Of a DNA stretch of 64,000 bases, positions 30,849 through 49,394 are shown piece after piece. The notes under the pieces are model-generated. The model saw only the letters and a program-made list of their open reading frames with translations, had not been told where the DNA came from and did not search any database. Every line of letters starts with the position of its first letter. Positions within the stretch are counted from its first letter, which is position 1. Both the position numbers and the translations under genes were made by a program. The stretch comes from Candidatus Parcubacteria bacterium (GTDB lineage Bacteria > Patescibacteriota > Saccharimonadia > UBA4664 > JBIOIQ01). The DNA is taken from contig OY970378.1 of the NCBI GenBank assembly GCA_963718875.1, positions 260,396 through 324,395 of the forward strand. Reading direction: 5' to 3'.

Positions 30849-30871
30849 TGGTTCGGACGAACGGTTTATAC
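30849..30871 (+). repeat. Degenerate A-repeat remnant (GGTTCGGACGAACGGTTTATACC) at the distal end of the array
   Basis: Matches right half of A (TTCGAACGGTTTTAGCC). Confidence 0.4.
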
Positions 30872-31043
30872 CTTAAAATCTTCATTTCTAAGTTGTGATT
30901 GACGAAGAATGGATCGAAAAGTTCCCAGCGGAATTTCTTTCTTGCCGGCTGGAATGATAACAGTAAGATTGGCTTTGCGATATTTGGCATGACTACCTTT
31001 GGAAAACAAAAATAAAGCCCTTGGCTTCTAAGACTTTGATCAT
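30865..31043 (-). pseudogene. hicA: hicA-like toxin gene with frameshift in a T-run (N-term MIKVLEAKGFIFVFQR* in one frame, ...KGSHAKYRKANLTVIIPAGKKEIPLGTFRSILRQSQL in the next)
   Basis: Both halves resemble HicA (KGSH...GTxRSILKQ) but lie in different frames around TTTATTTTTGTTTTCC. Confidence 0.5.
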
Positions 31044-31062
31044 GTGTCGAGACGAATAAAGT

Positions 31063-31281
31063 TTAGGCACTCTGGAGGGTGAGAGTTTTAAAATGAGGAG
31101 CATCTATTACCGAAATATCTGGAGAAAAAGTATTTTCAAAATATAGCTCAAGGGCCTCTTTAAAGCTGTCTAAAGCTTGTTGCTCAGTATCGCCAAAGCT
31201 TGATACGTCAACATTAAGACACTGGGCAACGTAATATTTGCCATCTTTATAAACAACATTTTGTAATTCTAGTTGAGCCAT
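31063..31281 (-). CDS. hicB: HicB-like antitoxin (UPF0150/RNase-H-like fold)
   Basis: MAQLELQNVVYKDGKYYVAQCLNVDVSSFGDTEQQALDSFKEALELYFEN. Confidence 0.5.
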   Translation of the reverse strand: MAQLELQNVVYKDGKYYVAQCLNVDVSSFGDTEQQALDSFKEALELYFENTFSPDISVIDAPHFKTLTLQSA

Positions 31282-31318
31282 GTTGAACCCATTATACATG
31301 ATAATAATCATTGATATA

Positions 31319-31360
31319 GGTGGGCTGATTAACGATTTTCGAACGGTTTTAGCCTCGTAA
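31319..31360 (+). repeat. A repeat (pseudo-tRNA-Asp 3' end) copy
   Basis: GGTGGGCTGATTAACGATTTTCGAACGGTTTTAGCCTCGTAAAGC. Confidence 0.7.
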
Positions 31361-31418
31361 AGCAAAGCGCCCTCCATACTGGCAGGGCGCCGAGCGTGGA
31401 GGGCGATGGTGGCTGGGG

Positions 31419-31724
31419 CTACCGATGTAACTCAAAGTCCGTGCCTTTCAGAAGGCTTTCCGCCGCCGAGAAGCAATGGGGAGCATTCCTCACAGGTTGA
31501 CCCGCGAGAACACTCGCCAACGCCTGAGCCGTCATCTGCAGGGCTCCTTGCAAGCTGTGAAGAGGCTGTACCGGCATCACTTCGAACTTCTCGCTGAGGG
31601 GATTGTGGCATTGCCCTTGCTCTGACGCGTTGGGAGCGGGGCAGGTGAGCAGGTCTTCCTCGTCGACCGAGATGAGACCGTGGGTGGTGCACTCCCTGAC
31701 CGGCCAACACCTATCAGCGTCCAT
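31419..31724 (-). CDS. Cassette protein of the WPVREC-THGLISVDE paralog family (copy 1)
   Basis: N-terminus RCWPVRECTTHGLISVDEEDLLTCPAP matches 44849..45226 (RSWPVRECNTHGLISVDEQDQTTCPAP). Confidence 0.5.
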   Translation of the reverse strand: MDADRCWPVRECTTHGLISVDEEDLLTCPAPNASEQGQCHNPLSEKFEVMPVQPLHSLQGALQMTAQALASVLAGQPVRNAPHCFSAAESLLKGTDFELHR

Positions 31725-31726
31725 TA

Positions 31727-31968
31727 TCAGCAGCCCAGATTTGCACGGTTGATGCGTCTGAGGCTGCTACGAAGCGCTTCCTCAGTATAGACCTCGGGTC
31801 CGACGAGACGATCGTCATGGCGGAACTCGATGACGTAGTCTTCGTCACCCTCGTCGCGGTTGATGGCTCCGATCTCCTTTGCAAAGGCGATCACGGCATC
31901 TGGCTCTTCTGGGCCCTCAATGACTACGCAGGGGCAGTCGTATTGGGCTGCGTAACCTTCGTGCATGA
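31727..31968 (-). CDS. Small acidic Cys-containing protein upstream of and abutting 31419..31724
   Basis: Start MHEGYAAQYDCPCVV...; stop 3 bp before the next start. Confidence 0.35.
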
Positions 31969-32067
31969 TTCTCCCTTTTGAGGTTGAGGAGTACGGCTGA
32001 AGCAGTTTGGGATAATGAATATTAGCATAAATTTGATCCGAAGTCAATTAAAATTGAACGTAGCAAA

Positions 32068-32096
32068 CAAAAAGAGACCCTACAAGGTCTCTTTAA
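32068..32096. terminator. Module C hairpin (AAAAAGAGACCCTACAAGGTCTCTTT) abutting an A repeat
   Basis: Analogous hairpins at 33298, 40487, 42128, 43290, 45350, always followed by TAAGCATAAG..TAT then GGCGGGAGC. Confidence 0.55.
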
Positions 32097-32108
32097 GCAT
32101 AAGCATAT

Positions 32109-32137
32109 TGGCGGGAGCTGATTAATGATTTTCGAAC
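32109..32137 (+). repeat. A repeat copy (left half only)
   Basis: TGGCGGGAGCTGATTAATGATTTTCGAAC. Confidence 0.7.
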
Positions 32138-32140
32138 TCG

Positions 32141-33277
32141 CTAGAGCCGATCAGAATCAGAGCTTCTAGGGGTTGTGTCGGCCTTATCATTGAGGATACC
32201 AGATAGGATGTTTGTCATTCGGCTATTGGCTTCTTTTAATTGGACCTCTAGGCCTTTTCTTTGTTCTACTTCTTCGAGCACGATGGCTTGGCTTTGTTCT
32301 AATTCGATAGTCCTTGCCTTTAAGGTTTGTTCAGCGCTCCTGCGCTCTGACTCGGTAGCCGCTAAAATGAGAGATGTTGTATAAACCGTAAAAATAAAGA
32401 GATGCAAGAAAATTAAGTTTTGATCAGTCGATTGCCCTATCGAAAAAGGCCCCAATTTATTAACGGTTCCCCAAACCGCCGACATGGATATAAGCAATGT
32501 GGCCGTGACCACCCCGATTTGCTCAAACTTTAGGGCTACCCAGATGAGTAACGGAAAGATGATATAAGGAGCTTCAGTTAAACCGCTGCGTTGCGACTGA
32601 GAAAAAACTAATACGCTTGTGGCCAGAATTAGGGTCAGTAGCAAGCCAAATTGTCTTAATTGCTTGAATGAAAAATGGATTTGGTGGATGCCGCTGTAGA
32701 CCAGTATGAGTGGAGCAAAAATTAGAGCTCCCATGGCATCACCAACCCACCAAACAGCCCAATTTGCCGTAAAAGTCGACCAGGTTACAAGTTTGCCCAA
32801 GGCTAAACTTAGGGTGCCAATGGTGGCACCTACGAGGGGACTAATGAGGGCTGCAACTACAATAAAGACCAATACGTTTTGCAAACCGGATAGTTTTTGG
32901 CTTATCTTGGTCCGGCGTAATAGGTAGGCGCCGGTTAGCGCTTCGAGCGTGTTACCGATGCCAATACCTAATGCCACTGCCACTGGTTCGTGAGTCAAGA
33001 TATTAGCAACAAAGGCTCCCGCTAGGATACTAGGCCAATATTTAAAACCAAGCAAAAATAAGGCGGCAATGGCGATACCGGTGGGAGGCCAGACTGCCGT
33101 TATTTGTTTGGTAGTAAAGGCTAGTGATAAGCCCAATTTGGCTGAGATTACATAGATAAGCACCAACAAAACGGCTTTCATCAAATAGCGGGAATTTAAG
33201 TTGGGAATATGGCTTCTCAAATTACTTAACCGACTAGCCATTTTATACCTGTTAATTAAATAGTTTGCTAATATCAT
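32141..33277 (-). CDS. MASE1-type membrane sensor fragment, low-GC, truncated at an A repeat just where a PAS domain would begin
   Basis: About 8 TM then coiled coil ending ...TNILSGILNDKADTTPRSSDSDRL*; stop 3 bp from A copy. Confidence 0.45.
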   Translation of the reverse strand: MILANYLINRYKMASRLSNLRSHIPNLNSRYLMKAVLLVLIYVISAKLGLSLAFTTKQITAVWPPTGIAIAALFLLGFKYWPSILAGAFVANILTHEPVAVALGIGIGNTLEALTGAYLLRRTKISQKLSGLQNVLVFIVVAALISPLVGATIGTLSLALGKLVTWSTFTANWAVWWVGDAMGALIFAPLILVYSGIHQIHFSFKQLRQFGLLLTLILATSVLVFSQSQRSGLTEAPYIIFPLLIWVALKFEQIGVVTATLLISMSAVWGTVNKLGPFSIGQSTDQNLIFLHLFIFTVYTTSLILAATESERRSAEQTLKARTIELEQSQAIVLEEVEQRKGLEVQLKEANSRMTNILSGILNDKADTTPRSSDSDRL

Positions 33278-33400
33278 ACTATGCGGCTGTGTTCGACACC
33301 AAAAGAGGCTTCGTAAAGCCTCAGTAGTAGATAACCAGAGCATAAGTATATTTATAAAAAAACAATCTTCAATGTGGCTGCTCGTTTCATTTAACGCGAT

Positions 33401-33437
33401 CTTATTAACGATTTTCGAACGGTTTTAGCTTCATAAA
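33401..33437 (+). repeat. A repeat copy (right two-thirds)
   Basis: CTTATTAACGATTTTCGAACGGTTTTAGCTTCATAAA. Confidence 0.7.
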
Positions 33438-33506
33438 AAGCACTCGGCCACCCAGAGAGCAGCTTTGTGCAGATACTGAGTGGCCATTTTTATTGCAGCC
33501 TTGTAA

Positions 33507-34100
33507 CTAGGATGTCTGATCGAGGAACCTTATTATTGCCCGACGGTAAAACAACATCACAGTGACGATGCTTTGCGAGTGGTTGATTCCGGCCACACGA
33601 TGCACCTTTGCGCCTGCAAGCCGCATGGTGGAAAGCGGCACAAAGTCACGCCAAGGCTCCATGATAAGGGTTCGATTGAGCTGATGATCTGTTAGGAGCC
33701 GTTGGGATTGCTCACAGGCTACGGCTGACTCCTGGAATGCCTCGCTTGATCCTACAGACTTAGCAAATTTTGGTGGTGGGTCACTCATTAGTCGGAGGGC
33801 CCCACAGACGCTTACAACACCTACGAGCTGTGGGCGAGCAGCATAGGCATTAATGATGAGACTTGCACCAGCGCTGATGCCAATAAGGGCTACTGGATCG
33901 CCAGTTGCAAGTAATTCATCGATCACGGCCAGGAGCTTGGCTAATTTAGGCGAATACTTATTACCGTCGCGCCAGCCAACAGCCAAAGGGTAAAGCTGAA
34001 CATCCTTTGTGTTCCATACCTTTGTGAGCAAGGCAGGAAAGTTGAATTTGCCGTCATCGAGTCCAAATACAAGGACAATCCGAAGCTTTCGATTAGACAT
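33507..34100 (-). CDS. Alpha/beta-hydrolase-fold protein (GISAG nucleophile elbow)
   Basis: LIGISAGASLIINAYA. Confidence 0.45.
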   Translation of the reverse strand: MSNRKLRIVLVFGLDDGKFNFPALLTKVWNTKDVQLYPLAVGWRDGNKYSPKLAKLLAVIDELLATGDPVALIGISAGASLIINAYAARPQLVGVVSVCGALRLMSDPPPKFAKSVGSSEAFQESAVACEQSQRLLTDHQLNRTLIMEPWRDFVPLSTMRLAGAKVHRVAGINHSQSIVTVMLFYRRAIIRFLDQTS

Positions 34101-34126
34101 GAATGGATTATAACAAAAAAGCTTCA

Positions 34127-34148
34127 GAAGGGTTCGGCCTCATAAAGC
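34127..34148 (+). repeat. Partial A repeat (right tail GAAGGGTTCGGCCTCATAAAGC) followed by shared hairpin GAGCCGCCCAGCAGGCGGTCTTGCGCTGCTGAACGGCT
   Basis: Same tail plus hairpin at 37365-37420. Confidence 0.55.
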
Positions 34149-34252
34149 ACAAGAGCCGCCCAGCAGGCGGTCTTGCGCTGCTGAACGGCTGTAAAACTGA
34201 GGAACGATCGCTGGTGACTTGCGTGGATCTCCAACTCGGAGCTGGAGCCGTC

Positions 34253-34552
34253 TCAGCTGCCTCGACGGCCAGTCTCGATGTCCAAGCCAGCCTGCTCTCG
34301 GGCTCTTCTGACGTGACCCGAGTACGGCGGCACTTCCTCGACACTCGAGATAACCCCGGCTTCCAGCAGAACACTGGTTACCCAGCAGCCGTGGCAAACC
34401 TCCTTGCAGGCAAGATTATCGTTGTGGAGGCCGTGTTTCAGCCCACTGTGGGCCGTAGCCATGAGAACTCTCATGGCATGCTTGACAGAGGTGGGACTTG
34501 CGGTTTGCAGCATCTGCTCGAGTTCTTGTTGCCTGGTGACAGCGGTAATCAT
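34253..34552 (-). CDS. Hypothetical 99-aa cassette protein (RBS AAGGAG)
   Basis: GC-rich; ...HGLHNDNLACKEVCHGCW. Confidence 0.4.
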   Translation of the reverse strand: MITAVTRQQELEQMLQTASPTSVKHAMRVLMATAHSGLKHGLHNDNLACKEVCHGCWVTSVLLEAGVISSVEEVPPYSGHVRRAREQAGLDIETGRRGS

Positions 34553-34595
34553 GCTCGTACTCCTTTGCTAGGCGAACGGAACGAGTGGCAATATT

Positions 34596-34763
34596 TACGA
34601 CGGTGATGCAAAGAGCGCTTAGAGAAAGCTTGTCATTTCCGCGTACTCGAGAGCATGAACTTGGTGGGGGCAGGTTTCGCAGAGGGGCAACCCACAGGTT
34701 GTGGGTGAAGTGCCTTCGAACCGGCACTTCTTAACTGCAGGCTTCCCGCAGGTACAGCGTTTG
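34596..34763 (-). CDS. 55-aa Cys-rich Zn-ribbon protein (METNKRCTCGKPAVKKCRFEGTSPTTCGLPLCETCPHQVHALEYAEMTSFL)
   Basis: Translated by hand; RBS GAGGAG 6 nt before ATG; below ORF-track size cutoff. Confidence 0.4.
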
Positions 34764-34880
34764 TTTGTTTCCATAAGTCTCCTCGTGTGCTCGACGTGGT
34801 GAGTGAAGCTTGGTTTATTTATACTCCAGATAAGTCATTATTCAAGCACGAGCGTATTGGTAAAATCTGCTTGCCGATTA

Positions 34881-34920
34881 GCTAATTAACGATTTTCGAA
34901 CTTTGATTCTATGGCGGGCC
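34881..34920 (+). repeat. Rearranged A repeat (GCTAATTAACGATTTTCGAAC then TATGGCGGGCC) followed by module H
   Basis: Module H GGAGGAGCAGGTTAGAACTCATTTT also at 44700-44745. Confidence 0.5.
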
Positions 34921-34963
34921 GTTCCGTCAACTGACGGAGGAGCAGGTTAGAACTCATTTTCTG

Positions 34964-35527
34964 TTAAGCGCTCTGGGCAAGTAGAACAACAAAGAATATG
35001 CCCAGTACATTTAAAAGATACGATACAGCCAAAAAATGGGTGTTATTCATTTTAGAAGCACCTATTAGGCTTACGCCTAGCTCGTCTGGTAGTGGAGAGG
35101 CGATGATTAAGGCTCCTGACAACGGAAGTAGCCAGGCAAAGTAGGGTGTTTTAAAAAGTCGCTTCAGTTTTGGAGTGCCAACTTTTGCCAGGTAGGGCTT
35201 AAGCTCTTTTGTTACCTTGTCTCGGATGAATCTAAAAATAATGTAATCGCCCAGCATTGATCCTATACCAGCTACAATAGCGATTTCGAGTGGGTTGAGA
35301 TGTTTGGCAAGTTCAAACAGGACGTATCCAGCTGGGAGCACGGTATAGGTGGAAACAAAGAGAAAGCCTGCAACAAGTGCTCCGATGTATCCAAGAGAAC
35401 CAAGTCCTTGGATGAGTCCGGCTACTTCAGATGTTTTTGCTAGGAAATAAAAAACAATCATGCCTAGTAGAAGTAGGAATGTGTTTTTAAAACCCCATCC
35501 TCTCCATTTACCTAAAAGCATATCCAT
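34964..35527 (-). CDS. DedA/VTT-family membrane protein
   Basis: TVP38/DedA-like topology and G-rich re-entrant motif (GIGSMLGDYIIFRF). Confidence 0.5.
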   Translation of the reverse strand: MDMLLGKWRGWGFKNTFLLLLGMIVFYFLAKTSEVAGLIQGLGSLGYIGALVAGFLFVSTYTVLPAGYVLFELAKHLNPLEIAIVAGIGSMLGDYIIFRFIRDKVTKELKPYLAKVGTPKLKRLFKTPYFAWLLPLSGALIIASPLPDELGVSLIGASKMNNTHFLAVSYLLNVLGIFFVVLLAQSA

Positions 35528-35680
35528 AATTAAAGTTTACCATGATACAAAAAAGCATAGTAAAGGCTTAATAATTGCTGATGGGTTGTAACTGCCTAAA
35601 AATTGTTAAGCCAGGAAGTCTTTGAACGCTACAGTCGCATAAGCGTCTTTTGTGCTACCTTATTAGCATGAGTGTATTAG

Positions 35681-37201
35681 GTGATTAATGTAAGCAGCAT
35701 AGAAAAAGCTTTTTGGGAGCTGAACGCAGATGATGGTACGGGTTTGCGTACAAGTACAGGCTTGTTTTATAACCATACTGTTTTTGCTCGTGATGTGGCT
35801 ATGATTGCACGATGGATTTTACCCTTGGGTAAAAATTATCAGCAAGTGAGCAGGGAAGTAATTCTGACTTTGTGTTGGCACCAAGGAGTGGAAACCAATC
35901 CTCGGGCTGAAGAGCAGCCAGGACGAATCCATAATGAGTACCGAAAGTTTTCTGCTTGGCAGGCTCCTATGGGAGTAAAAACAATTGGTCGGTTGGTGTC
36001 ATTGCTGTGGGGCGGGAATTTGCATGAGTATACCAGCTATATTGCTGTGGATACGACGCCGTTGTTTGTTCAATTGGTTTGCGCCTATGCGACGCAAGTT
36101 GATCGAGGCATTTTGGACGAAGTGGCGGTACGACACGACGGTCGCGAGGTGAGGGTAGGGCAGTGCTTGAAAGAAGCAATAGACTGGATAGTACATCATC
36201 GCCAGGGTTATGGCCTAATCGCAAACGCCCGCAGTAACCCATTGAGCTTGTATTATGAGGTTTGGAAGGATTCTCATACAGCTCTAATTCACAATAATGG
36301 CCGCTTAGCCTCATTGTCTCGTCCGGTGGCATACTTAGATACACAATTATTGGCAGTTGATGCGCTGCGTGCAGCTGCCGGTTTGCTAGCAGCTGAAAAT
36401 TTAGAATCTAGTCAGTCTTGGCTCAAAATTGCCGATGAGCTGGTGGAGGTAACATTGGAGCGTTTTTGGGAACCAGGGGAGCAGCGGTTTTACGCGGCCT
36501 TGGACCATGATCGGCAGGGTAAATGGAGGCCAGTTATGGCTGAGGGCTCTAACTCAGGATGGTTGCTCGACAGTACTTTTTTTGACAATCTAGAGGGTAA
36601 ACCGTATATGGAAGCGATTGTCAGGCAATTGTTGGGACCGGACTTTTTGACTCCAGCAGGAATCAGGGCGAGGGCAGTTGGTTCAGATAAATGGATTAAG
36701 GCAGCTGATTATCACGGTTCGCACACGGTATGGCCGGTGGATAATTATGTCTTTGCAAGGGGTTTGCGCCGTCAGGGACTACCGCAACTAGCTGAAGTCG
36801 TGGAGCAACGTTTATTACGAGCTGTAGAGAAAGCGGGGGCTTTCTATGAGTACTTTTTGGTTGCTTCAGATGGTCGGGTTGTGTACGAGCCTCATCGTGT
36901 GGTTAAGGAGCGCTATCAGTCACGTTATCGTCGTTTGCCCCGGATGCCTGTGCAGATACTCCCGGAGCGTCAGCTAGCTTGGACAATTTCGGCTTGTTTG
37001 CTCATACAAAAAGGGAGTACGCAAGCTGCTCCCTCTAATACATGGGCGCAGGCGTTGCAGGAGAAGCTGGTGCCACATTTGCTTGAAGTGGAGACAGAAA
37101 ATGATGAAGTTCCGTTTGTTCCAGCCCTCTACCGAGGTGCCGGACGCATAACTCAGATAGCGATCGAGCAATGGGTGCGCGAATATATTTTTCGACGCTA
37201 A
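35681..37201 (+). CDS. (alpha/alpha)6-barrel glycoside hydrolase, amylo-alpha-1,6-glucosidase (GDE_C)/GH63-like
   Basis: 506 aa; blocks (WLLDSTFFDNLEG, TPAGIRARAVGSDKW, TVWPVDNYVFARGLRR) resemble the GDE_C family. Confidence 0.45.
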   Translation: MINVSSIEKAFWELNADDGTGLRTSTGLFYNHTVFARDVAMIARWILPLGKNYQQVSREVILTLCWHQGVETNPRAEEQPGRIHNEYRKFSAWQAPMGVKTIGRLVSLLWGGNLHEYTSYIAVDTTPLFVQLVCAYATQVDRGILDEVAVRHDGREVRVGQCLKEAIDWIVHHRQGYGLIANARSNPLSLYYEVWKDSHTALIHNNGRLASLSRPVAYLDTQLLAVDALRAAAGLLAAENLESSQSWLKIADELVEVTLERFWEPGEQRFYAALDHDRQGKWRPVMAEGSNSGWLLDSTFFDNLEGKPYMEAIVRQLLGPDFLTPAGIRARAVGSDKWIKAADYHGSHTVWPVDNYVFARGLRRQGLPQLAEVVEQRLLRAVEKAGAFYEYFLVASDGRVVYEPHRVVKERYQSRYRRLPRMPVQILPERQLAWTISACLLIQKGSTQAAPSNTWAQALQEKLVPHLLEVETENDEVPFVPALYRGAGRITQIAIEQWVREYIFRR

Positions 37202-37212
37202 TATTTTGCAAC

Positions 37213-43023: not shown

Positions 43024-43065
43024 CCGTTCCTCTGAACCGCGCCGCTGGTCGTTCCCAACCTGCAC

Positions 43066-43377: not shown

Positions 43378-43427
43378 TGACGAAAGCTCCCAAACAGGCG
43401 AACTTTCGTTGGCTGCTTGAGAGCTGA

Positions 43428-43913
43428 TCAAACCCTTGAATGGGCGTTCCAGACGGGAGTGCGTACTTCAGAACTCTCTACCTGGAATGCTTCCATCAAG
43501 GCCAGGATATTGCGTCCCCATTGAGTAGTGCGGTCCAGCTCCTCCAAGTACTGCGAAGCTTTGCGGGTGCCAGCATTGACCTCGGCGGTGAGTTTTGCAT
43601 GAGTCGCGAGAATGTCCTGGATGATCAGCTGGATGGCTTCCTTCTGCGACATGTCGCAGGCTTCAGCGAGACGTTGGCACATGTCGAGAAAATCCTCGAA
43701 GGGCGCATCCATGCTTCTCACGACCGTCCCATCGTCTGGTATGTAGGACTCATTGCTGTCACGCGTGGCGCCAGCAGCCAGGTTCCAGGTAATGGCAGCG
43801 AGGTTCTTTGGATTTACGCCATCGCTGCGGATCCCTAGCGGATGCCAAAAACCCCGCAAGTCAAACTGTGTCATGACGATGGCACGGTCGATATTGGGCC
43901 TGAAAAAGGGCAT
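43428..43913 (-). CDS. Hypothetical cassette protein (start MPFFRPNIDRAIV, RBS GGAGG)
   Basis: GC-rich. Confidence 0.4.
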   Translation of the reverse strand: MPFFRPNIDRAIVMTQFDLRGFWHPLGIRSDGVNPKNLAAITWNLAAGATRDSNESYIPDDGTVVRSMDAPFEDFLDMCQRLAEACDMSQKEAIQLIIQDILATHAKLTAEVNAGTRKASQYLEELDRTTQWGRNILALMEAFQVESSEVRTPVWNAHSRV

Positions 43914-44180
43914 AGTATTGCCTCCAAGGTAGGTACGAGTAGGGCTTGGATCTATGCGGCACATAATATCATAAAATAAACAAAATGGCAATAATTTTAA
44001 CCTGAGCCACCAGCACAGAGGATGGCTTTCTATATCTCGTTCACTTTGAGATAAGCAAACAAATAGCTTAAGTAAGCAATAATAAAAGTTAACTTTTTAT
44101 AGGGTTGTTGCTACTGGAAATTCACAAGTCACCTCTTTAACGCTATGATTCAATTACGTCTTGCGATCTAGGAGGTCGTC

Positions 44181-44600
44181 ATGAAGTCCCTACTGTTTAA
44201 TCAATGTCCAAAGCCGGATGTAAACGGCCGGGTTCCGCTAGGTGGCGAGAGACTTGCCCAAATCGATAGCTACACAGTCAAGATCGATACGGCTTCTGGC
44301 TGGTGGGTGTTGGGTTGCATCGCCTTCACTCTGGTGTGCGCTGCTCTTGCCGCCCTTTTATCTCCAATTAGCGGAGACCTTCGCTGGATGTTCTTAATCG
44401 GTGGGGTCATCTTGGGGATGGGCGCATGTTGCGGTCTCTTCGCTGCTGTAGTGGCAGCAGACTATCGTGAGCATGTCAGAAAAGGCGGCCGGGTAGAATA
44501 TATGTCTCATCCATACCCCCATTTGCTCACCTGCGTGGGGCTAGGACGAGATACCAAAGACCCTTACGGCAGGAGGTGGCCAGGGCCGAAATCGGCCTGA
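44181..44600 (+). CDS. Small membrane protein (cassette, divergent from 43428..43913)
   Basis: RBS AGGAGG; two TM. Confidence 0.4.
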   Translation: MKSLLFNQCPKPDVNGRVPLGGERLAQIDSYTVKIDTASGWWVLGCIAFTLVCAALAALLSPISGDLRWMFLIGGVILGMGACCGLFAAVVAADYREHVRKGGRVEYMSHPYPHLLTCVGLGRDTKDPYGRRWPGPKSA

Positions 44601-44848
44601 GATGATGTTAAAAAGCCTGGACGGGGTGGAGGGCTAAGTGCCTCCTGTCCAGGTTAGCGGCCGGGAGAAATTCCGGCCTTTTGTATTGCTGGCGCGTTAC
44701 GTCAACATGGAGGACCAGGTTAGAACTTATTTTATGGTTATTTGAGCATATAAAAGGTGAAACCCCGCCAGAATCAGCGAGGCCACCTTGGAAGATGGTA
44801 CTGATCTTGACGGGGCTGTGGCTTGTAAGTGCTCCCGGTCTGGCTGCT

Positions 44849-45226
44849 CTAGTTCGGATTAAAGATGCGCTTGATGAGCCCGACTGCCCAGAAGGGTGGG
44901 CTTAGCAGAAGACTCAGCCAGATCAATCCCTCCCACCAGACCATCTTTACATCTTCTTCGTAATCGTAAACCAGCTCGGTGAGTACGCCCATGCCGACGA
45001 GCCAGCCGCAGATGAAGAGCAGAAAGGCGAAGATGGCGATTCCATCTCCGGTGCTCAGGTTCTGCTTTCCCGATGGGGAAAAGACTTCGAACCTCTTGCT
45101 CAGTTTCATTCCGCACATGCCGCTGCCTGAGCTGGATGGGGCAGGACATGTGGTTTGGTCTTGTTCGTCGACGGATATGAGTCCGTGGGTGTTGCACTCG
45201 CGAACCGGCCAGCTACGTACTTGCAT
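44849..45226 (-). CDS. WPVREC-THGLISVDE paralog family (copy 2) with C-terminal TM extension
   Basis: Shared N-terminal 35 aa with 31419..31724; promoter TTGACT-16 bp-TATTAT about 60 bp upstream. Confidence 0.5.
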   Translation of the reverse strand: MQVRSWPVRECNTHGLISVDEQDQTTCPAPSSSGSGMCGMKLSKRFEVFSPSGKQNLSTGDGIAIFAFLLFICGWLVGMGVLTELVYDYEEDVKMVWWEGLIWLSLLLSPPFWAVGLIKRIFNPN

Positions 45227-45377
45227 TTGGATTCTCCCGTAGTAGGGCAGAGCGCTTAGATGCGCTTCGCTTGATGACTTGCAGAGATTACGTATGATAA
45301 TAGCATTTTTTTATAAAAAGTCAATCGAAATTAAATAAACAAACAAAAAAGAGGCTTCGTAAAGCCTCAATAATTGC

Positions 45378-45406
45378 ATGGCGGGAGCTTATTGATGATT
45401 TTCGAA
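45378..45406 (+). repeat. A repeat copy (left half)
   Basis: TGGCGGGAGCTTATTGATGATTTTCGAAC. Confidence 0.7.
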
Positions 45407-45497
45407 CTACAGCTGCATTATAAAATGACGATGCCCCCAAAGATGCCTTGCGGCGTCCGAGGGGGCAGTTCGTCAGTCGAGCGAAGGAGCGGCCTTA

Positions 45498-45794
45498 TCA
45501 AGAGGCAATGACGGTGTAGTGGATGCGATGCCAGAGGCCTGTTTTGTAGGGCAGGATGCCCGCATCGTTCAGGTAGAGGCGCTCGGGGGAGCCGGGGTGA
45601 CCAACTTCTCTGACCATGACGAACGGCGCTTCTTCGGTTTCTACGCCGCTGACGATTTCGAACTTCATGCCGCCGTGGAATCGCGTGTCATGTCGTCGGA
45701 TGATGGTTCCTGGTGTGAGGAGGTAGAGATCGTCGGGCCCGAGAGCACCGGGGTGTTGCGGTCGGACGTCGGTAAGATCGGGGTCGGCTCTCAT
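45498..45794 (-). CDS. Hypothetical 98-aa cassette protein
   Basis: GC-rich. Confidence 0.35.
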   Translation of the reverse strand: MRADPDLTDVRPQHPGALGPDDLYLLTPGTIIRRHDTRFHGGMKFEIVSGVETEEAPFVMVREVGHPGSPERLYLNDAGILPYKTGLWHRIHYTVIAS

Positions 45795-45928
45795 CGTTGA
45801 CTTTTATTCGGCTGACGGATGTACTGATGCATTTTCGCACCATTAATGTTGATTATAGCATAAGCATGATAATAAGTCAATAATCTTGATTACATAACAA
45901 AAATAGGCAAGACCTTAATAAGTATTAT

Positions 45929-45980
45929 TGCGGGAGCCTGTTTGCCGACAGGCAGGCTAATTAACGATTTTCGAACCGTT
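45929..45980 (+). repeat. A repeat copy interrupted by a 20-bp hairpin insert (GCGGGAGC-CTGTTTGCCGACAGGCAGG-CTAATTAACGATTTTCGAACCGTT)
   Basis: Read directly. Confidence 0.65.
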
Positions 45981-46041
45981 TACTCGGTTTAATAACGGAA
46001 AGAGCCCCCAGGCAGAGGGATTTCCGTATTGCTTGAGGGCT

Positions 46042-46278
46042 TCAATTGGAAGGTCGCTTGATGCGCCGTACGAATTCATCGACATCGTCTTGATGTATAC
46101 GTGTCGCATGGTGGTTGCCGTCATCGATCTTGAATCGCAAGCCCCTCCCTAGGGCTGGCCTACCCGCTATGCCTTCGATGAAATAGCTGACATACTGCGT
46201 CTGCCGACCAACTAGATCTGATACCACCATCAGTGGCACATAGCCATCGGCGTCCGGTGAGTTATCGAAGATGGGCAT
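46042..46278 (-). CDS. Hypothetical 78-aa cassette protein
   Basis: ORF only. Confidence 0.3.
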   Translation of the reverse strand: MPIFDNSPDADGYVPLMVVSDLVGRQTQYVSYFIEGIAGRPALGRGLRFKIDDGNHHATRIHQDDVDEFVRRIKRPSN

Positions 46279-46290
46279 CTTTGGCCAGAT

Positions 46291-46605
46291 TCAATTAGTT
46301 TTCTCGGCTGCAGTCTCGATGTTGACTTTGGCTTCCATGACAGCGACTTGCCCCATGTACTTGGGGATCATTGCGATGGCAGCCTTTCCGGCACGTGCTT
46401 TGGCAGCCTCTTCCGTCTCAGCCGAGAGACTGAAGTCAAACCTGACCTCACAGAAGACGTTTGGGTCTGGTTCGATGAAGATTTCCAAACCCCAGAAGTC
46501 GTAATCATGGAGCAGGGTTTGACGGATTTCGGCCTCGTGTTGAGGAAGCAGGGTTGTAGCCGGACCTACCAAGGACAGGGTGACGTGGGCTTTCCAGTCT
46601 TGCAT
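46291..46605 (-). CDS. Hypothetical 104-aa cassette protein (start MQDWKAHV, RBS AAGGAG)
   Basis: GC-rich. Confidence 0.35.
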   Translation of the reverse strand: MQDWKAHVTLSLVGPATTLLPQHEAEIRQTLLHDYDFWGLEIFIEPDPNVFCEVRFDFSLSAETEEAAKARAGKAAIAMIPKYMGQVAVMEAKVNIETAAEKTN

Positions 46606-46639
46606 TGCGACTCCTTTTGTCGGGGGTTCCACCGGATGA

Positions 46640-46762
46640 AAGCGCACCGGTCCACGCATTCAGAACGAATTGATAACTATGCTACTAAAATACGCTTATT
46701 GCAACCATAAGCGGCAAAGCTTATCGAGAAAGTATTGACAAAGCATAAGTATTGTGCTAGTA
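46640..46762. promoter_or_regulatory. Module B copy with promoter TTGACA(46734)-17 bp-TAGTAT(46757)
   Basis: Shares CAACGCATTCAGAACGAATTGA(C/T)AACTAT with 39252-39280. Confidence 0.55.
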
Positions 46763-46886
46763 TTGTTGGATTCAATCGTTAAGGTTGAAATGTTCCTTAC
46801 AACTTCCTTTCTTGGTGTTTGTCGACTTGGTCACTAACAGCTTTAGCTGCTAGATCGACAGACATCTCAACGAAAGGAAAACTGTC

Positions 46887-47495
46887 ATGACACTGGCCGT
46901 CCAGATCTTCATCCACTCCAACCCCTTTGTCGGGATCATTTCCGACGTGGCATTCAACCGCATCGTTTCACGAGCGGTTTACGCAAGGGCCGAGGACATC
47001 CAGAAGCGCTACATGGCGGGCGAATACCCCCGCGATTCCTTCAGCTTCACCATACTCGACCCCACAGCTCCGGCCTCAACACCGAGCGAGGACGCCATCA
47101 TGGTGCTTGCCCTCATCGGGCCAGAGGGAGCAGACTTCGCTCCCAACGGCCTTGCCAAGGCAATCGAACACCGGGACTCGGGTACGGAGTGTGGTGTGCT
47201 GGTGTACACCCAGAAGCACCGGCTGCCCAGTGGAAGCTTCCGCTACGGGTTCTCCGTCTGCCTCGACGGCACCTACGTCGGCGGCAGTGGCGAAACCGAA
47301 CTTCAGGACCGCTACCAGTGCACCCTTCTCGCCGCGGATTTCAACCTCCGCATCGACACGACCATCAAGGAGTGGGAAGAGGTTCACGGCCCCGGTCGCT
47401 GGTTCAGCGAAGACAACAAGCCGGGCAGACGCATCACAGACGCGCTTGTATCGGTCATGTCAAGCCACCCCATGAGCCGTCCTGGCACGTCATGA
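46887..47495 (+). CDS. Hypothetical 202-aa cassette protein
   Basis: GC-rich; antisense ORFs rejected. Confidence 0.4.
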   Translation: MTLAVQIFIHSNPFVGIISDVAFNRIVSRAVYARAEDIQKRYMAGEYPRDSFSFTILDPTAPASTPSEDAIMVLALIGPEGADFAPNGLAKAIEHRDSGTECGVLVYTQKHRLPSGSFRYGFSVCLDGTYVGGSGETELQDRYQCTLLAADFNLRIDTTIKEWEEVHGPGRWFSEDNKPGRRITDALVSVMSSHPMSRPGTS

Positions 47496-47507
47496 CGTAA
47501 GCAGCAC

Positions 47508-47630
47508 AGCCTCGCCGTTCACCCTAGGGTGGGCGGCGGGGCCGATTCCCAAGCCCGTTAACGCAAGTTAATTGGCTTAGTAGTCGAAAGACTGATTTAC
47601 ATTCCCACAACCGCTCTGAAAGGAGCAACC
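47508..47630 (+). repeat. Module E hairpin plus promoter/leader module (ii) (...TTAACGCAAGTTAATTGGCTTAGTAGTCGAAAGACTGATTTACATTCCCACAACCGCTCTGAAAGGAG) running into the next start codon
   Basis: Near-identical copy at 48467-48590; related copy at 59640-59736. Confidence 0.65.
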
Positions 47631-47996
47631 ATGCTGAATTCTGTCGCCCGAGCCTCCCAGGCACTGGCAATCTGGCGCATCGCCGAAACCGGAGTCACCA
47701 ATGAGACGGACAACCGGGCCGATCTGAAAGGAGCGGTAGTACAAGCCCATCAGCAGTTCTTGCAGGCGGCCTACGACGTCGCCTTTGAACTGGTCCCCTT
47801 GCTTCTGAAGCACGGGGAAGTAGTCGCCAAGACTACAGTTCGCTACTCGGCTACTCCGGCCAACGGCGGCTTCGTACTGCAGGCGATGTCCGAAGACGAT
47901 CCCGGCATGCCGCTGAATCCCAACTCGCACGTCGAGCGGATACTCCAGCTCATGGTCGACCTGACGGAGCTGCTCGAGATCCTAGGGGTAGAGTAA
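47631..47996 (+). CDS. Hypothetical 121-aa cassette protein
   Basis: Stop overlaps start of next ORF (ATGA-type coupling). Confidence 0.4.
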   Translation: MLNSVARASQALAIWRIAETGVTNETDNRADLKGAVVQAHQQFLQAAYDVAFELVPLLLKHGEVVAKTTVRYSATPANGGFVLQAMSEDDPGMPLNPNSHVERILQLMVDLTELLEILGVE

Positions 47997-48454
47997 TGGA
48001 GTGCCCCAATTGTGGAGAGTCTGGACAGCCCGGTCATCACTGGTTGGCTGGGCAAGGATACGTCTGCTTCAACAAAGATGGGGGAGACGACGTTCCTCCT
48101 CCTGATATCCAGCTCTCGAAAGGAGCGGTAATGCCAGACACCGATGAGGTCCGTGTTTCGGATCTCCACCAGAGCTGTACTTTCAACGTCATCTACCATC
48201 CCACGAGCAACAGTCCGCTCTGTAACAAGCCCGCTACGTCGTTGGTGATGGTGACCGACGCTCCGCGCGTAAGCCAGCCGCCCAAGTGGCGGTGCGACGA
48301 GCACGAGGGCATGGTCAGCAGAGACGAGCGAGGAGAAGTTGTCACAGCCATGCCGCGTGAGCTGGCGGATTCGTTGACAGATCGCAGGCTTGGCAAGCCT
48401 GGCAACCCCATCCGGGCTTGGCTCGACATGCCGCCCCACGATGAGCCGTACTGA
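47996..48454 (+). CDS. Zn-ribbon (CPNCGESG...) cassette protein
   Basis: N-terminal CxxC plus downstream Cys/His. Confidence 0.4.
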   Translation: MECPNCGESGQPGHHWLAGQGYVCFNKDGGDDVPPPDIQLSKGAVMPDTDEVRVSDLHQSCTFNVIYHPTSNSPLCNKPATSLVMVTDAPRVSQPPKWRCDEHEGMVSRDERGEVVTAMPRELADSLTDRRLGKPGNPIRAWLDMPPHDEPY

Positions 48455-48466
48455 TCGCTTGTAGCA

Positions 48467-48590
48467 AGCCTCGCCGTTCACCTTCTGGGTGGGCGGCGGG
48501 GCCGATTCCCAAGTCTGTTAACGCAAGTTAATTGGCTTAGTAGTCGAAAGACTGATTTACATTCCCACAACCGCTCTCGAAAGGAGCATC
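48467..48590 (+). repeat. Module E plus promoter/leader module (ii), copy
   Basis: As 47508-47630. Confidence 0.65.
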
Positions 48591-49070
48591 ATGCGAACTC
48601 TGTCAAGTTTGGAGTACAGCGAAGCCAGGCTGCTTCTCGAGTACATCGTCGATCAAGCTGGAGATGCCAAGGTTGCAATCTGCGTAGTGGACGCAACCGG
48701 CAAGCTTTTGGCTGCGGCTTCAATCAACGGCGCCGCCTCTCACTACATGACCTTCGCCCTGGCCAAAGCCATCACCGGTCTTCACGAAGAGGATGACACG
48801 GCTGGTTTCCGCCACGATCAGCCTGACCACAGCAGTTGGGTCCCGAAGGAAGAAGGCCAAGGCTGGTCCGAGGGGGAACTAATTCTTGCCGCGCAGCTCA
48901 GCCCAGGCTTCTGCGGCTGGGCAGGGGGCTCAGTCGTAATAGATCCTTCCGAAGAGCTTCACATCTGTGGCTCCATCGGTGTCAGCGGTTTGATGGAGTT
49001 GGAGGATCAAGAGTTGGCGGACAAGCTGCCTGCCCGATTGGTAGCTTTGATACTTACATCGCTATCGCAG
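48591..49070 (+). CDS. GlcG/HbpS-like DUF336 protein (putative heme/cofactor-binding); listed ORF continues to 49232 by reading through module E, so the true 3' end is uncertain
   Basis: A..DAKVAICVVDATGKLLAAASINGAA...FALAKAITG pattern typical of DUF336. Confidence 0.5.
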
Positions 49071-49073
49071 CAT

Positions 49074-49324
49074 AGCCTCGCCGTTCACCTCCGGGTGGGC
49101 GGCGGGGCCGATTCCCAAGTTAGTTATAAAGTTAACTGGTTTAGGAATCGAAAAAAGCTGGGCTCGACTGGATACGGGCTTGACTACGTCAACCCTGGCT
49201 GCCCGATCGGTCGCAGTGTTCCCTCGGGCTAGTCGAACCGGCAGAAGATCGCCGGTTCGAACATTCGCTAGCGCTCATTAAGAAAAGCCGACAACCACAA
49301 GGGTCATCGGCTTTTCTTGGCGGG
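49074..49324 (+). repeat. tRNA-proximal copy of the composite block (E hairpin, tail (i), 190-bp segment with inverted partial tRNA copy, hairpin) ending in the tRNA-Asp 3' end
   Basis: Duplicate of 43066-43338. Confidence 0.7.
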
Positions 49325-49394
49325 CTCGACCGGATTCGAACCGGCGATCTTCTCCGTGACAGGGAGACATGTTGGGCCTCTACACCACGAGCCC
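49318..49394 (-). tRNA. tRNA-Asp (anticodon GTC), GC-rich
   Basis: Cloverleaf read by hand: acceptor GGGCTCG, anticodon arm TCTCC-CTGTCAC-GGAGA, T-arm GCCGG-TTCGAAT-CCGGT, CCA encoded. Confidence 0.8.

Follow-up and report, generated by a model that had tools for sequence, protein, structure and literature searches.

Organization of the tRNA-Asp locus

The window, a 64-kb stretch of the genome of an ultra-small bacterium (Patescibacteria, Saccharimonadia-like), contains a series of small gene cassettes that adjoins the 3′ end of an intact tRNA-Asp(GTC) gene. ARAGORN and Rfam (tRNA, 62 bits) both identified this gene on the minus strand, exactly where the earlier note had ended the array. A ~45-bp repeat, A, occurs in nine full copies, all of them on the + strand and within 31.3-46.0 kb. 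The features of the region are listed below.

26258..30848, no strand: probable older part of the island; modules common to the array (Pfam)
26270..26286, +: right-half A; hemC start codon 13 nt away
30849..30878, +: weak A remnant with an internal deletion (nhmmer E=3)
31318..31361, +: A1; core degenerate (AGGTGGG-CTGATT..); nhmmer E=1.8e-12
31362..45928, either strand: eight A-bounded cassette units of 0.55-5.6 kb, 1-6 ORFs each
32109..32153, +: A2; terminator hairpin and TTTAAGCATAAGCATAT before it; core search, nhmmer
33392..33437, +: A3; TGGCGGG portion degenerate; core search, nhmmer
34127..34190, +: right-half A (..GCCTCATAAA) and type-2 terminator hairpin
34859..34913, +: A4; variant with a 19-nt insertion between TTGG and AGCTAATTAACG; nhmmer
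37365..37419, +: right-half A (..GCCTCATAAA) and type-2 hairpin
40517..40562, +: A5; 42/45 identical to A7; core search, nhmmer
42176..42218, +: A6; left arm homologous to that of A2; core search, nhmmer
43150..43331, +: S element and terminator hairpin T1, joined to A7
43332..43377, +: A7; left arm 96% identical to the tRNA-Asp flank; nhmmer
45379..45424, +: A8; core search, nhmmer
45929..45996, +: A9; variant with an 18-nt hairpin insertion after TGCGGGAGC; nhmmer
45997..49156, mixed strands: tRNA-proximal unit; two small minus-strand ORFs and a four-ORF + strand run
49157..49317, +: second S and T1 copy, joined to tRNA-Asp
49318..49394, -: tRNA-Asp(GTC), intact

Using the A core ATTAACGATTTTCGAAC with a tolerance of up to three mismatches, we obtained nine matches, 9/9 on the + strand, starting at 31318, 32108, 33392, 34878, 40516, 42175, 43331, 45378 and 45950. 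Shuffled sequence gave an expectation of 0.16 matches, and none of 100 shuffles reached nine. An nhmmer profile of A recovered the same nine copies (E 3e-15 to 4e-8), with no other match in the window below E=1. The earlier note had counted 12 or more copies; nine of them stand as full copies on the same strand, whereas those at 30849, 34127 and 37365 are partial or remnant. The copies that it placed at 34881 and 45929 are real, but they are variants with 18-19-nt insertions, and its near-identical pair at 42176 and 43332 was indeed identical at 33/33 positions. A second TGGCGGG lies at 34915, just after A4. An identical 47-nt hairpin trails both right-half copies (34127 and 37365), and the type-2 hairpin also trails an A copy in L003. 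The right-half copy at 37365 adjoins a segment (37216-37365) in which the 3′ end of the gene at 26903-27277 recurs in truncated form.

The island had been given an extent of 18.5 kb. It probably extends left to ~26.26 kb rather than stopping at 30.85 kb, as suggested by several modules at 26.3-28.1 kb that recur in the array and by the right-half A at 26270, which is the probable eroded distal border. The added segment includes GC-rich mini-genes, a B repeat (27997-28075), and pilin-like, MEDS, membrane and cupredoxin-like genes. Cassette modules are also present outside the A-bounded region at 19.2, 21.0 and 26.3-28.1 kb; together with the degenerate and halved A copies, they indicate that deletions and other rearrangements have also shaped the region.

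Cassette units and their cargo

The cassettes display a common anatomy. In the direction of the tRNA, the first component is a terminator hairpin, often with TTTAAGCATAAGC after it, that comes to lie immediately behind the tRNA. Next come the cargo genes, from one to a few, under promoters and terminators of their own, and last the A site (...GTTCGAAAATCGTTAATnAGCTCCCGCCA). A different terminator hairpin is found at the same position after every A and every tRNA-Asp; since the hairpins differ while their position is constant, it is their function that is conserved and not their sequence. The earlier note had assigned each unit its own sigma70-like promoter and terminator. The six best sigma70-like sites (at least 10/12 matches) are all located upstream of cassette ORFs; the overall counts exceed those of shuffled sequence only modestly (promoters, 23 vs 15.9; terminators, 26 vs 19.7).

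Recognisable cargo of the eight units includes a MASE1 membrane protein, abhydrolase-like, glycoside-hydrolase-like and CYTH proteins, a PEMT/ICMT methyltransferase and, in the largest unit, a ParB-like protein; no family was assigned to their remaining ORFs. In the tRNA-proximal unit, B hairpins separate the four + strand ORFs (46887-47495, 47631-47996, 47996-48454 and 48591-49232, the last HbpS-like). A small AT-rich two-gene unit (30850-31311) is followed by the weak A remnant (30849-30878); its genes appear hicAB-like by eye, a reading that Pfam does not confirm. Most units are GC-rich, as had been described (0.50-0.56 vs 0.45-0.47 in the flanks), with the exception of the MASE1 unit (0.44) and the unit at 30.8-31.3 kb (0.37), and GC3 in the array reaches 0.76. 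The composition of the cargo is foreign. The cargo proteins are singletons at 90% identity, and they are unrelated between genomes as well as between units.

The two B+S+T1 copies, which are 85-96% identical, could suggest that the array arose by local tandem duplication and divergence of one ancestral unit, without any mobility. Nevertheless, an all-against-all BLASTP comparison of the cargo proteins gave only three weak partial pairs, which already contradicts this origin; the units range from 0.55 to 5.6 kb, and other genomes carry the same site with different cargo. We regard such an origin as hardly credible.

Sequence and nature of the A site

The last bases of tRNA-Asp, ...CCCGCCA, correspond to TGGCGGG on the + strand (49318-49324), the anchor and putative crossover core. 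These 7 nt and a TTCGAA-like box are all that A and the tRNA have in common. In 11 copies of A, drawn from four genomes, a 29-nt segment hardly varies. A6 is identical at 30/30 positions to the copies in L001 and L002, whereas identity between the tRNA genes is no more than 92-93%; this between-genome identity, higher than that of the tRNA itself, points to A being a constrained DNA site. A simple Cre/Xer-type core site would be expected to have two inverted arms, and these are missing from A.

A functional RNA could also be envisaged, in which A would serve minus-strand transcripts, for instance as a tRNA-like 3′ tag or as a processing signal with a terminal CCA, and would have spread alongside minus-strand genes without being a recombination site. 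A does terminate in ...GCTCCCGCCA downstream of minus-strand ORFs and, at A7 only, an upstream GGGAGCT could pair with AGCTCCC. However, RNAalifold analysis of 11 A copies revealed no consensus pairs, no covariation and no conserved fold, and Rfam gave no match at A. The absence of a conserved fold indicates a DNA site rather than an RNA, and it leaves the designation of A as a pseudo-tRNA repeat only marginally supported, by the 7 nt and the TTCGAA-like box. Additionally, A sits behind the terminator hairpin and T-tract of the cargo itself and is restricted to one locus, where the adjoining cargo faces either way. An RNA role for A is therefore very improbable.

Junctions and related loci

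The S element begins as a degenerate version of the tRNA-Asp 3′ end, after which comes T-arm sequence arranged as a 10-8-10 palindrome. One copy of S with T1 abuts A7 and the other abuts the tRNA. The 158-nt left arms at these two places are identical at 152/158 positions, and our breakpoint alignment places the end of the identity immediately past TGGCGGG, a precise junction that supports the site-specific insertion at a tRNA attB that the earlier note had proposed. Six metagenome loci contain exact 18-nt repeats of the S type, and three others contain near copies.

In a collection of 185,579 species, the exact A core was present in three metagenome-assembled genomes (MAGs). Each of the three has A in the same orientation at a distance of 0.5-3.3 kb downstream from its own tRNA-Asp, with flanking genes that differ from those of the window; the link between A and tRNA-Asp is conserved, which again supports repeated insertion at the tRNA. 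A 29-bp variant, A′, occupies the matching tRNA-Asp position in four metagenome contigs. In 120 metagenome loci, a generalized A/A′ pattern gave five same-strand matches downstream of the tRNA, against 0, 1 and 0 matches in three control compartments.

Evidence of insertion was provided by a related pair of metagenome contigs that represent the empty (L088) and occupied (L016) site. With flanks ~95% identical, L016 differs from L088 by 2,056 additional bp located exactly between '...TTTAAGCATAAGCTACTTGGCGG' and the tRNA body. The insert comprises two integrase-less cassettes, encoding a 429-aa HExxH protein and a NUDIX hydrolase, both of which begin with A′ (TGGCGGGACATAGAGTCGKATTTCCGAAC) and end in their own hairpin. 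Given the variant bases on either side (TAC/AAT on the left, G/A on the right), the join must fall within the 7 bp TTGGCGG. This evidence, which also favours site-specific insertion, concerns the A′ variant in other genomes and not strains of the present genome, whose nearest relatives share a flank protein of only 52-58% identity and have contigs that break before the locus. For the present genome itself no presence/absence variation could be shown, and a short-read contig from the same sample is colinear with the window.

Natural transformation followed by homologous recombination, without a dedicated recombinase, would be another route. Saccharibacteria are naturally transformable, and the tRNA, A and the hairpin with TTTAAGCATAAGC could be mere homology anchors, as in the minimal mobile elements of Neisseria. 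Comparison between genomes shows 76-100% conservation of the non-coding modules around ORFs that differ, the modules are shuffled and present outside the array too, and no recombinase was found. However, the sequence common to the L016/L088 junctions is only 23 nt with two mismatches, far under the usual length for RecA-dependent exchange, and the switch occurs within 7 bp; in the window, A and the tRNA have only 7 nt in common. The strict single orientation and the position at a tRNA gene end are, moreover, hallmarks of site-specific integration. We consider exchange by homology alone improbable.

Absence of a linked recombinase

Pfam and PHROGs searches found no integrase, transposase, relaxase or phage structural family in the array, and Pfam found none in the rest of the 64-kb window. 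The recombinase search around the array that the earlier note had proposed yielded no such gene across the whole 64 kb, and none was found in the inserted L016 cassettes. No helper element is known, because neither A nor A′ was found in the IMG/VR, phage and plasmid collections searched. In 10 related metagenome loci, an Xer-type gene is located at a distance of 1-3.9 kb from tRNA-Asp; an Xer link to the locus is only a lead.

These results could also be read as decay: full-size prophages or integrative elements would have inserted serially at tRNA-Asp and then lost their integrases and most of their genes, leaving A copies as decaying attR scars with nothing mobile now. The half or degenerate A copies at 30849, 34127, 37365 and 26270, the truncated gene fragment at 37216-37365 and a short-read contig from the same sample that is colinear with the window are consistent with this scenario, as is the ParB-like gene in the largest unit, given the ParB-domain genes in the Dehalococcoides ssrA integration module (PMC3146451). 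Nevertheless, the conservation of A between genomes exceeds that of the tRNA gene, unlike that of scars; no integrase fragments were seen in any frame examined; units as small as 0.55 kb are complete expression units; and the freshly inserted L016 cassettes are likewise integrase-less single genes. We consider decay unlikely.

The locus is, in our judgement, probably an integration hot spot for integrase-less tandem cassettes at the 3′ end of tRNA-Asp, and the likely process is that cis-mobilizable mini-cassettes accrete site-specifically through a recombinase that is unlinked and unidentified. A circular cassette would recombine through the 6-7 bp CCGCCA(A) common to the cassette and the tRNA gene end; the tRNA would remain intact and gain the terminator of the cassette, the A site would stay at the distal junction, and successive insertions would displace older cassettes outward. 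The recombinase would come in trans from another element, or possibly be a host Xer-type enzyme. Because it has not been identified, this mechanism is inferred from the junctions alone, and the circular intermediate, the insertion order and the identity and type of the recombinase are all inferences.

Comparison with known systems

The array resembles the Dehalococcoides ssrA islands, the tycheposon islands and, functionally, integrons. What sets it apart from them is the size of its cassettes, the promoters and terminators built into these, the A site and the lack of a linked integrase. Integron arrays are one-ended and built of small mobile cassettes (1-3 genes), with one recombination site each, on a fixed platform; their cargo is mostly of unknown function and includes no recombinase. 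The present array shares the one-ended arrangement, the single site per cassette, the mostly unknown cargo and the recombinase-less cassettes. However, no intI, attI or Pc was found beside it, A has no attC-like imperfect palindrome or fold, the cassettes face both ways with their own promoters and terminators, and the platform is a tRNA gene. The integron-like platform considered in the earlier note was rejected, since no defining feature is met.

The Dehalococcoides ssrA-specific islands (McMurdie et al. 2011, PMC3146451) lie in tandem downstream of a single small-RNA gene (tmRNA), each flanked by a 20-bp direct repeat of the 3′ end of the gene, and measure ~12 kb; 16/31 have a module with a serine recombinase (DsiB) next to the attachment site, the 15/31 without an integration module have been read as cis-mobilizable and gathered by accretion, and a ParB-domain gene belongs to the system. 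The present array is similar in its tandem elements downstream of one small-RNA gene, its ParB-type gene and its missing integration modules. In contrast, its target is tRNA-Asp with only 6-7 bp of gene identity, its repeat is an element-specific 29-45-bp site, its units span 0.55-5.6 kb, and they lack a recombinase in every genome examined.

In the tRNA-anchored islands of Prochlorococcus (tycheposons; Hackl et al., bioRxiv 10.1101/2020.12.28.424599), ~40-nt partial tRNA copies split adjoining elements, newcomers push older ones inward, degenerate remnants are scattered throughout, and tyrosine or serine recombinases and replication modules are present. A streamlined genome, a tRNA-seeded island, adjoining elements and degenerate remnants are common to both systems, but the present array has no recombinase or replication gene, and no more than 7 nt of its repeat correspond to a tRNA.

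SCC and pseudo-SCC composite islands at rlmH, and CIMEs with accretion-mobilization at ICE/IME attachment sites (reviewed in PMC5704250), share with this array the tandem pile-up at one site and the reliance, here inferred, on the recombinase of another element. Known CIMEs are usually ICE/IME decay products at sites with a known cognate integrase-bearing element, whereas the present array has no known cognate element and its units have the look of expression cassettes purpose-built for single genes. Xer-dependent IMEX and Acinetobacter pdif modules are also small, with one to few genes, no recombinase and short conserved sites at their borders, and a host tyrosine recombinase is presumed to act on them (PMC6449649). 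Their likeness to the present cassettes lies in this modular, recombinase-less design; pdif sites, however, are 28-bp 11-6-11 dyads, plasmid-borne and alternating in orientation (PMC6449649), whereas A is asymmetric, chromosomal, in a single orientation and tied to the end of a tRNA gene.

Repeat A and its tRNA-Asp anchor

Three tRNA genes were found in the window, one of which is an intact tRNA-Asp(GTC) gene at 49318-49394 on the minus strand (Rfam, 62 bits; ARAGORN). The array border coincides with the last base of this gene, confirming the claim of the earlier note that the array ends exactly at the tRNA-Asp 3' end. The ~45-bp repeat A has the consensus TTGGCGGGAGCTnATTAACGATTTTCGAACGGTTTTAGCCTCATAAA, and its 17-nt core occurs nine times at up to three mismatches, always on the plus strand, against 0.16 occurrences expected from shuffled sequences. 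A profile search recovered the same nine copies, A1 to A9, with E values of 3e-15 to 4e-8, and detected no further copy below E = 1 elsewhere in the 64 kb.

Start positions of the full A copies (profile search)
31318, plus strand
32108, plus strand
33392, plus strand
34878, plus strand
40516, plus strand
42175, plus strand
43331, plus strand
45378, plus strand
45950, plus strand

The same note had listed twelve copies, all on one strand; the strand holds for 9/9 full copies, and three of the listed positions are not full copies. Those at 34127 and 37365 contain only the right half of A, each directly followed by an identical 47-nt hairpin, and that at 30849 is a weak remnant with an internal deletion. 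The copies listed at 34881 and 45929 are A variants with an 18-19-nt insertion. A dispersed repeat of the MITE or REP type was rejected, since A is confined to one strand of one 15-kb stretch, with none elsewhere in the 64 kb.

Nature of the A site

The match between A and tRNA-Asp is restricted to TGGCGGG, the complement of the terminal CCCGCCA of the tRNA; a TTCGAA-like box is also present in A, but with a different spacing from that in tRNA-Asp. Based on 11 copies from four genomes, a 29-nt part of A, GTTCGAAAATCGTTAATnAGCTCCCGCCA (tRNA strand), is near-invariant, and the alignment of these copies with 60 nt of flank revealed neither a consensus structure nor covariation. ARAGORN and Rfam identified no tRNA or Rfam family at the A sites. 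A tRNA or tRNA-like RNA gene was therefore discarded, as was the proposal that A acts as an RNA element, for which no fold was found. Because its 29 nt are near-invariant and there is no fold, covariation or Rfam match, A is, as judged from its sequence, a constrained DNA site, neither an RNA gene nor a decaying tRNA fragment.

Apart from the TTCGAA hexamer, no inverted-arm dyad is visible in the alignments of the A consensus. The left arms differ among copies, while the right half (GGTTTTAGCCTCATAAA) corresponds to the T-tract that follows the terminator hairpin of the adjoining minus-strand cargo gene. In the direction of the tRNA, a terminator hairpin of fixed position and variable sequence follows every A and every tRNA-Asp examined, and TTTAAGCATAAGC often comes after this hairpin. 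The motif AAGCAYRAGY occurs at 14 sites of the window versus 1.2 expected (e.g., 12300, 21563, 27347, 32095, 37978, 39309, 42162 and 46741). These sites are mostly intergenic, next to promoters or in the interval from a terminator hairpin to the TGGCGG core, and the same motif (TTTAAGCATAAGC) comes before the core in three metagenome tRNA-Asp loci (L016, L088 and L100) and one related metagenome-assembled genome (MAG; L002). It may serve the recombination site as a second box for protein binding, or else act as a promoter element.

Junctions in the window and the S element

The left arms of A7 (43181-43338) and of the tRNA (49167-49324) are identical at 152 of 158 nt. This identity stops directly past TGGCGGG, where one arm continues into A and the other into the tRNA body. 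We interpret this switch, in which the same left arm leads through a single short core into two unlike right arms, as the footprint of a site-specific exchange. The left arm carries an S element, composed of a copy of the tRNA-Asp 3' end, in degenerate form, and a 10-8-10 palindrome, TCGAACCGGC-AGAAGATC-GCCGGTTCGA, which consists of tRNA-Asp T-arm sequence in both orientations and is shaped like a simple tyrosine-recombinase core site.

Copies of the 10-8-10 palindrome
49233-49260, perfect, in the S element beside the tRNA
43247-43274, one mismatch, in the S element beside A7

As a far-end repeat of the displaced tRNA fragment, A offers only TGGCGGG; the S element offers a longer one, but it is degenerate in the window. 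In the S element of a third related MAG (L003), the first 18 nt repeat the tRNA 3' end exactly. An exact 18-nt copy was also found 130-200 nt downstream of the tRNA in 6/120 metagenome loci, with near copies in three more, and in L100 two such copies enclose a 3.1-kb unit that has two NUDIX-type genes and no integrase.

Occupied and empty sites

Scanning metagenome contigs with the tRNA-Asp body yielded 120 loci, none of which contains the strict A sequence. Two of them, L016 and L088, have flanks ~95% identical and differ by 2,056 bp exactly at the tRNA end. In the empty locus, L088, an arm 'hairpin-TTTAAGCATAAGCTACT' is joined via TGGCGG to the tRNA body. In the occupied locus, L016, the same arm is joined via TGGCGG to a 29-bp variant, A' (TGGCGGGACATAGAGTCGTATTTCCGAAC), followed by cassette 1, a second A' and cassette 2, after which a new arm, 'hairpin-TTAAGCATAAGCAATT', joins the tRNA. 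The bases that vary on either side (TAC versus AAT on the left, G versus A on the right) leave TTGGCGG as the only place for the exchange. Neither cassette codes for a recombinase: their products are a 429-aa protein carrying an HExxH motif and a NUDIX hydrolase. A' has the length of the conserved part of A, and both have the boxes TGGCGGGA and ATTTYCGAAC, equally spaced. The common A/A' pattern gave five matches on the same strand downstream of the tRNA in the 120 loci (two in L016 and one each in L028, L046 and L100), versus 0, 1 and 0 in three control compartments.

Repeated site-specific insertion at the tRNA, as postulated in the earlier note, is supported by the window junctions and, from relatives rather than from variation within this species, by the L016/L088 pair. 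Two other explanations are contradicted: units that were the eroded remains of full-size elements are at odds with the conservation of A and with the fresh single-gene insertions in L016, and uptake by transformation followed by homologous recombination is at odds with a join of only 7 bp.

Related genomes and short-read contigs

An exact scan for the A core in one genome per species (185,579 species) identified three MAGs, assigned to an uncultured bacterium, Candidatus Saccharimonadia and, by its label, Candidatus Parcubacteria. In 3/3, the strand of A is the same and its distance downstream from a minus-strand tRNA-Asp is 0.5-3.3 kb, and the genes across the tRNA are unlike those of the window. 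Two of them, L001 and L002, are arranged as S-T1 (the S element with its terminator hairpin), A, one cassette, hairpin and tRNA, which is the expected product of a single insertion between the tRNA and the old flank. The A6 copy is identical to those of L001 and L002 at 30/30 positions, while the tRNA genes are 92-93% identical. In a comparison of the window with L003, the non-coding modules (A, the terminator hairpins and a promoter module) reach 76-92% identity, whereas the intervening ORFs are unrelated. The relatives detected with the flank protein at 51733-53166 share only 52-58% identity, and the contigs that hold them stop short of the tRNA-Asp locus. SurA-like, SOD and bPH genes were observed on the 3' side of tRNA-Asp in 15 metagenome loci, and SurA-like and bPH genes on its 5' side in L001 and L002; thus, in some lineages the tRNA gene seems to be inverted with respect to the genes around it.

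A 4,252-bp Logan short-read contig from the sample of the window (ERR12037361) is colinear with 43335-47586, beginning at A7 and ending at a B repeat (a separate hairpin repeat), and a second contig ends inside A2. The A and B repeats break short-read assemblies; thus, arrays at this locus are probably under-counted in MAG collections. By hand count, contigs end on the 3' versus the 5' side of tRNA-Asp in 9 versus 6 whole-contig loci, with no clear excess.

Cargo and expression signals

Most units have a GC content of 0.50-0.56, compared with 0.45-0.47 in the flanks, as the earlier note had described, but two units are not GC-rich. Its description of units with their own promoter and terminator is likewise borne out in part: ORFs occur on both strands, each with its own hairpin, and the six best promoter-like sites are all upstream of cassette ORFs, but the overall excess of such sites over shuffled sequences is only modest.

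Pfam identified a MASE1 membrane protein and glycoside-hydrolase-like, CYTH, ParB-like, PEMT/ICMT methyltransferase and HbpS-like proteins in the array; the remaining ORFs match no Pfam family. PADLOC detected no defence system in the cargo. PHROGs confirmed the ParB-like partition protein, placed the CYTH protein in a phage family whose function is unknown, and gave nothing else. The cargo proteins are mutually unrelated, which is evidence against local duplication as the origin of the units. Each of those looked up forms a singleton at the 90% identity level among 15 billion collected proteins, and no word-sharing relatives were found for the HbpS-like protein. A 202-aa cassette protein belongs to a small family (77 representative clusters) with relatives in contigs of 61-63% GC and in a Patescibacteria-like contig; these relatives point neither towards nor away from actinobacterial hosts as the source of the GC-rich cargo.

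The otherwise unrelated ORFs 31419-31724 and 44849-45226 have only their first 46 codons in common (65% aa and 84% nt identity; segments 31652-31706 and 45157-45211). No Rfam family matches this stretch, which could be a common 5' leader instead of coding sequence. By eye only, the L003 cassette protein at 4856-5782 (minus strand) has an N-terminus like the Lsr2 dimerisation domain, followed by regions resembling sigma-70 region 4 and a helix-hairpin-helix, and window ORF 41338-42027 has a C-terminal motif like that of this protein.

Extent of the island

The earlier note placed the array start at 30849. Nevertheless, elements of the array recur to the left of this position; thus, the island most likely spans ~26.26-49.32 kb and would have been eroded by deletions, an extent read from these recurrences.

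Array elements to the left of 30849
26270, right-half A, 13 nt from the hemC start
26885-27034, equal to 37216-37365 at 96.7% (150 nt)
27997-28075, plus strand, B hairpin
19.2, 21.0 and 27.3 kb, shared promoter and terminator modules

Similar GC-rich single genes are found further left. Those at 5947-6333, 11645-12214 and 19267-19719 are isolated; their GC3 is 0.78-0.89, against a genome GC of 45%, and they have sharp AT-rich promoter/terminator borders. Gene 19267-19719 and array gene 41338-42027 have terminators that are 94% identical. The region 21758-26257 contains a complete haem-synthesis operon (Pfam: ferrochelatase, URO-D, chlorite-dismutase-like HemQ, HemD and HemC), unexpected in a Saccharimonadia-like genome. 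It lies between two GC-rich mini-genes that share a terminator (20987-21078 and 26288-26379, 87%) and a promoter module (21532-21586 and 27316-27370, 93%), and might itself be acquired cargo.

The B repeat consists of a GC-rich hairpin with a 15-bp stem (GCCTCGCCGTTCACC..GGGTGGGCGGCGGGGC) followed by CGATTCCCAAG. In 4/5 copies it directly follows a plus-strand cassette ORF, and the fifth overlaps an ORF end. It is not a standard terminator, because the hairpin is not followed by a T-tract.

Further copies of the B repeat
43066-43145, plus strand
47508-47589, plus strand
48466-48549, plus strand
49074-49154, plus strand

The missing recombinase

No integrase, transposase, relaxase or phage structural family was detected by Pfam in the array, in agreement with the earlier note, or in the rest of the 64-kb window (50.3-62 kb precomputed). 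The poorly coding stretches at 34.2-34.7 kb and 38.4-39.3 kb contain no recombinase pseudogenes. No integrase gene lies beside the attachment site in the window, L001-L003, or the L016 and L100 units, and no linked recombinase was present in any of the eight loci seen. The strict A pattern had no match in JGI metagenome contigs, IMG/VR, or phage or plasmid collections, nor did the generalized A/A' pattern or the tRNA-Asp 3' end in IMG/VR.

In 10 metagenome loci (L019, L030, L039, L060, L071, L072, L074, L096, L113 and L114), a gene for an Xer-type tyrosine recombinase of 305-313 aa is located 1-3.9 kb downstream of tRNA-Asp. These proteins score above the NCBIfam cut-off for XerA and below those for XerC and XerD. 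The pattern looks like the conserved synteny of a housekeeping gene; the gene was not considered part of the element and is only a lead for the enzyme.

Proposed mechanism and significance

The best-supported reading is the repeated site-specific insertion of circular integrase-less cassettes at tRNA-Asp, with a recombinase that has not been identified. A circular cassette would insert via a 6-7-bp core common with the terminal CCGCCA(A) of the tRNA, would supply its own terminator for the tRNA, and would leave its A site at the distal junction. A broader proposal, which we advance tentatively and hold to be possible without being probable, is that this is an undescribed Saccharimonadia gene-capture system that fulfils the role of an integron in a different way. 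Single-gene cassettes ready for expression (each with promoter, ORF and terminator, plus a terminator serving the tRNA) and bearing a 29-45-bp A-family site would be inserted one by one into the tRNA-Asp terminal CCGCCA by a recombinase unlinked to the array, possibly the Xer-type enzyme of the cell, from a cassette pool common to lineages of differing GC.

For Patescibacteria, whose genomes are tiny and which rely on host cells, the ways of acquiring genes are poorly known. The locus represents a defined, sequence-specific route that adds single foreign genes at one safe site, and a concrete target for study, with a short site, a join narrowed to 7 bp and a pair of empty and occupied loci at hand. 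If the recombinase is unlinked or a housekeeping enzyme, the system would be a platform for cassettes that works without integron integrases, and the A site and tRNA-Asp end could then be a handle for gene insertion in bacteria that are hard to manipulate.

Comparison with known systems

An integron-like platform, the second possibility raised in the earlier note, failed the defining tests. An integron has intI, attI and Pc beside its first cassette, and no Phage_integrase or other recombinase family was detected in the 64 kb here. Integron attC sites are folded imperfect inverted repeats with a GTTRRRY core, whereas A has no consensus structure (11 sites) and its GTTAATC does not fit GTTRRRY, as read from the sequence without a dedicated attC model. 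Integron cassettes are mostly promoterless and co-oriented, in contrast to ORFs on both strands with their own promoter-like sites. Similarly, the 28-bp IMEX/pdif site comprises two inverted 11-bp arms and a 6-bp centre, a dyad that A lacks, and a tycheposon carries a tyrosine or serine recombinase and a replication module, neither of which was found here. In Dehalococcoides, the half of the tandem ssrA-specific islands that has no integration module has been read as cis-mobilizable (PMC3146451), and the tRNA-anchored islands of Prochlorococcus hold tandem tycheposons (10.1101/2020.12.28.424599).

Insertion at the 3' part of a tRNA gene that is regenerated, as in tRNA-targeting islands, is seen here, with an intact tRNA-Asp and the join in TTGGCGG (L016/L088), but the integrase that such islands carry beside the attachment site was not found. 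Arrays of cis-mobilizable elements (CIMEs) consist of att-bounded units without integration or transfer genes, as is the case here, and the locus agrees with this definition in all but the cognate element, of which none is known from the 64 kb of this 1.19-Mb genome or from the IMG/VR, phage and plasmid collections. Full-text literature searches found no published description of such arrays in Patescibacteria. Unusual here are the absence of a linked recombinase, an element-specific A site with 6-7 bp of target identity, and very small expression-ready cassettes; tandem site-specific accretion at a tRNA gene is known. Integron arrays and Xer-dependent pdif modules (PMC6449649) are functionally close, and the closest described systems are the Dehalococcoides ssrA islands and the Prochlorococcus tycheposon islands.
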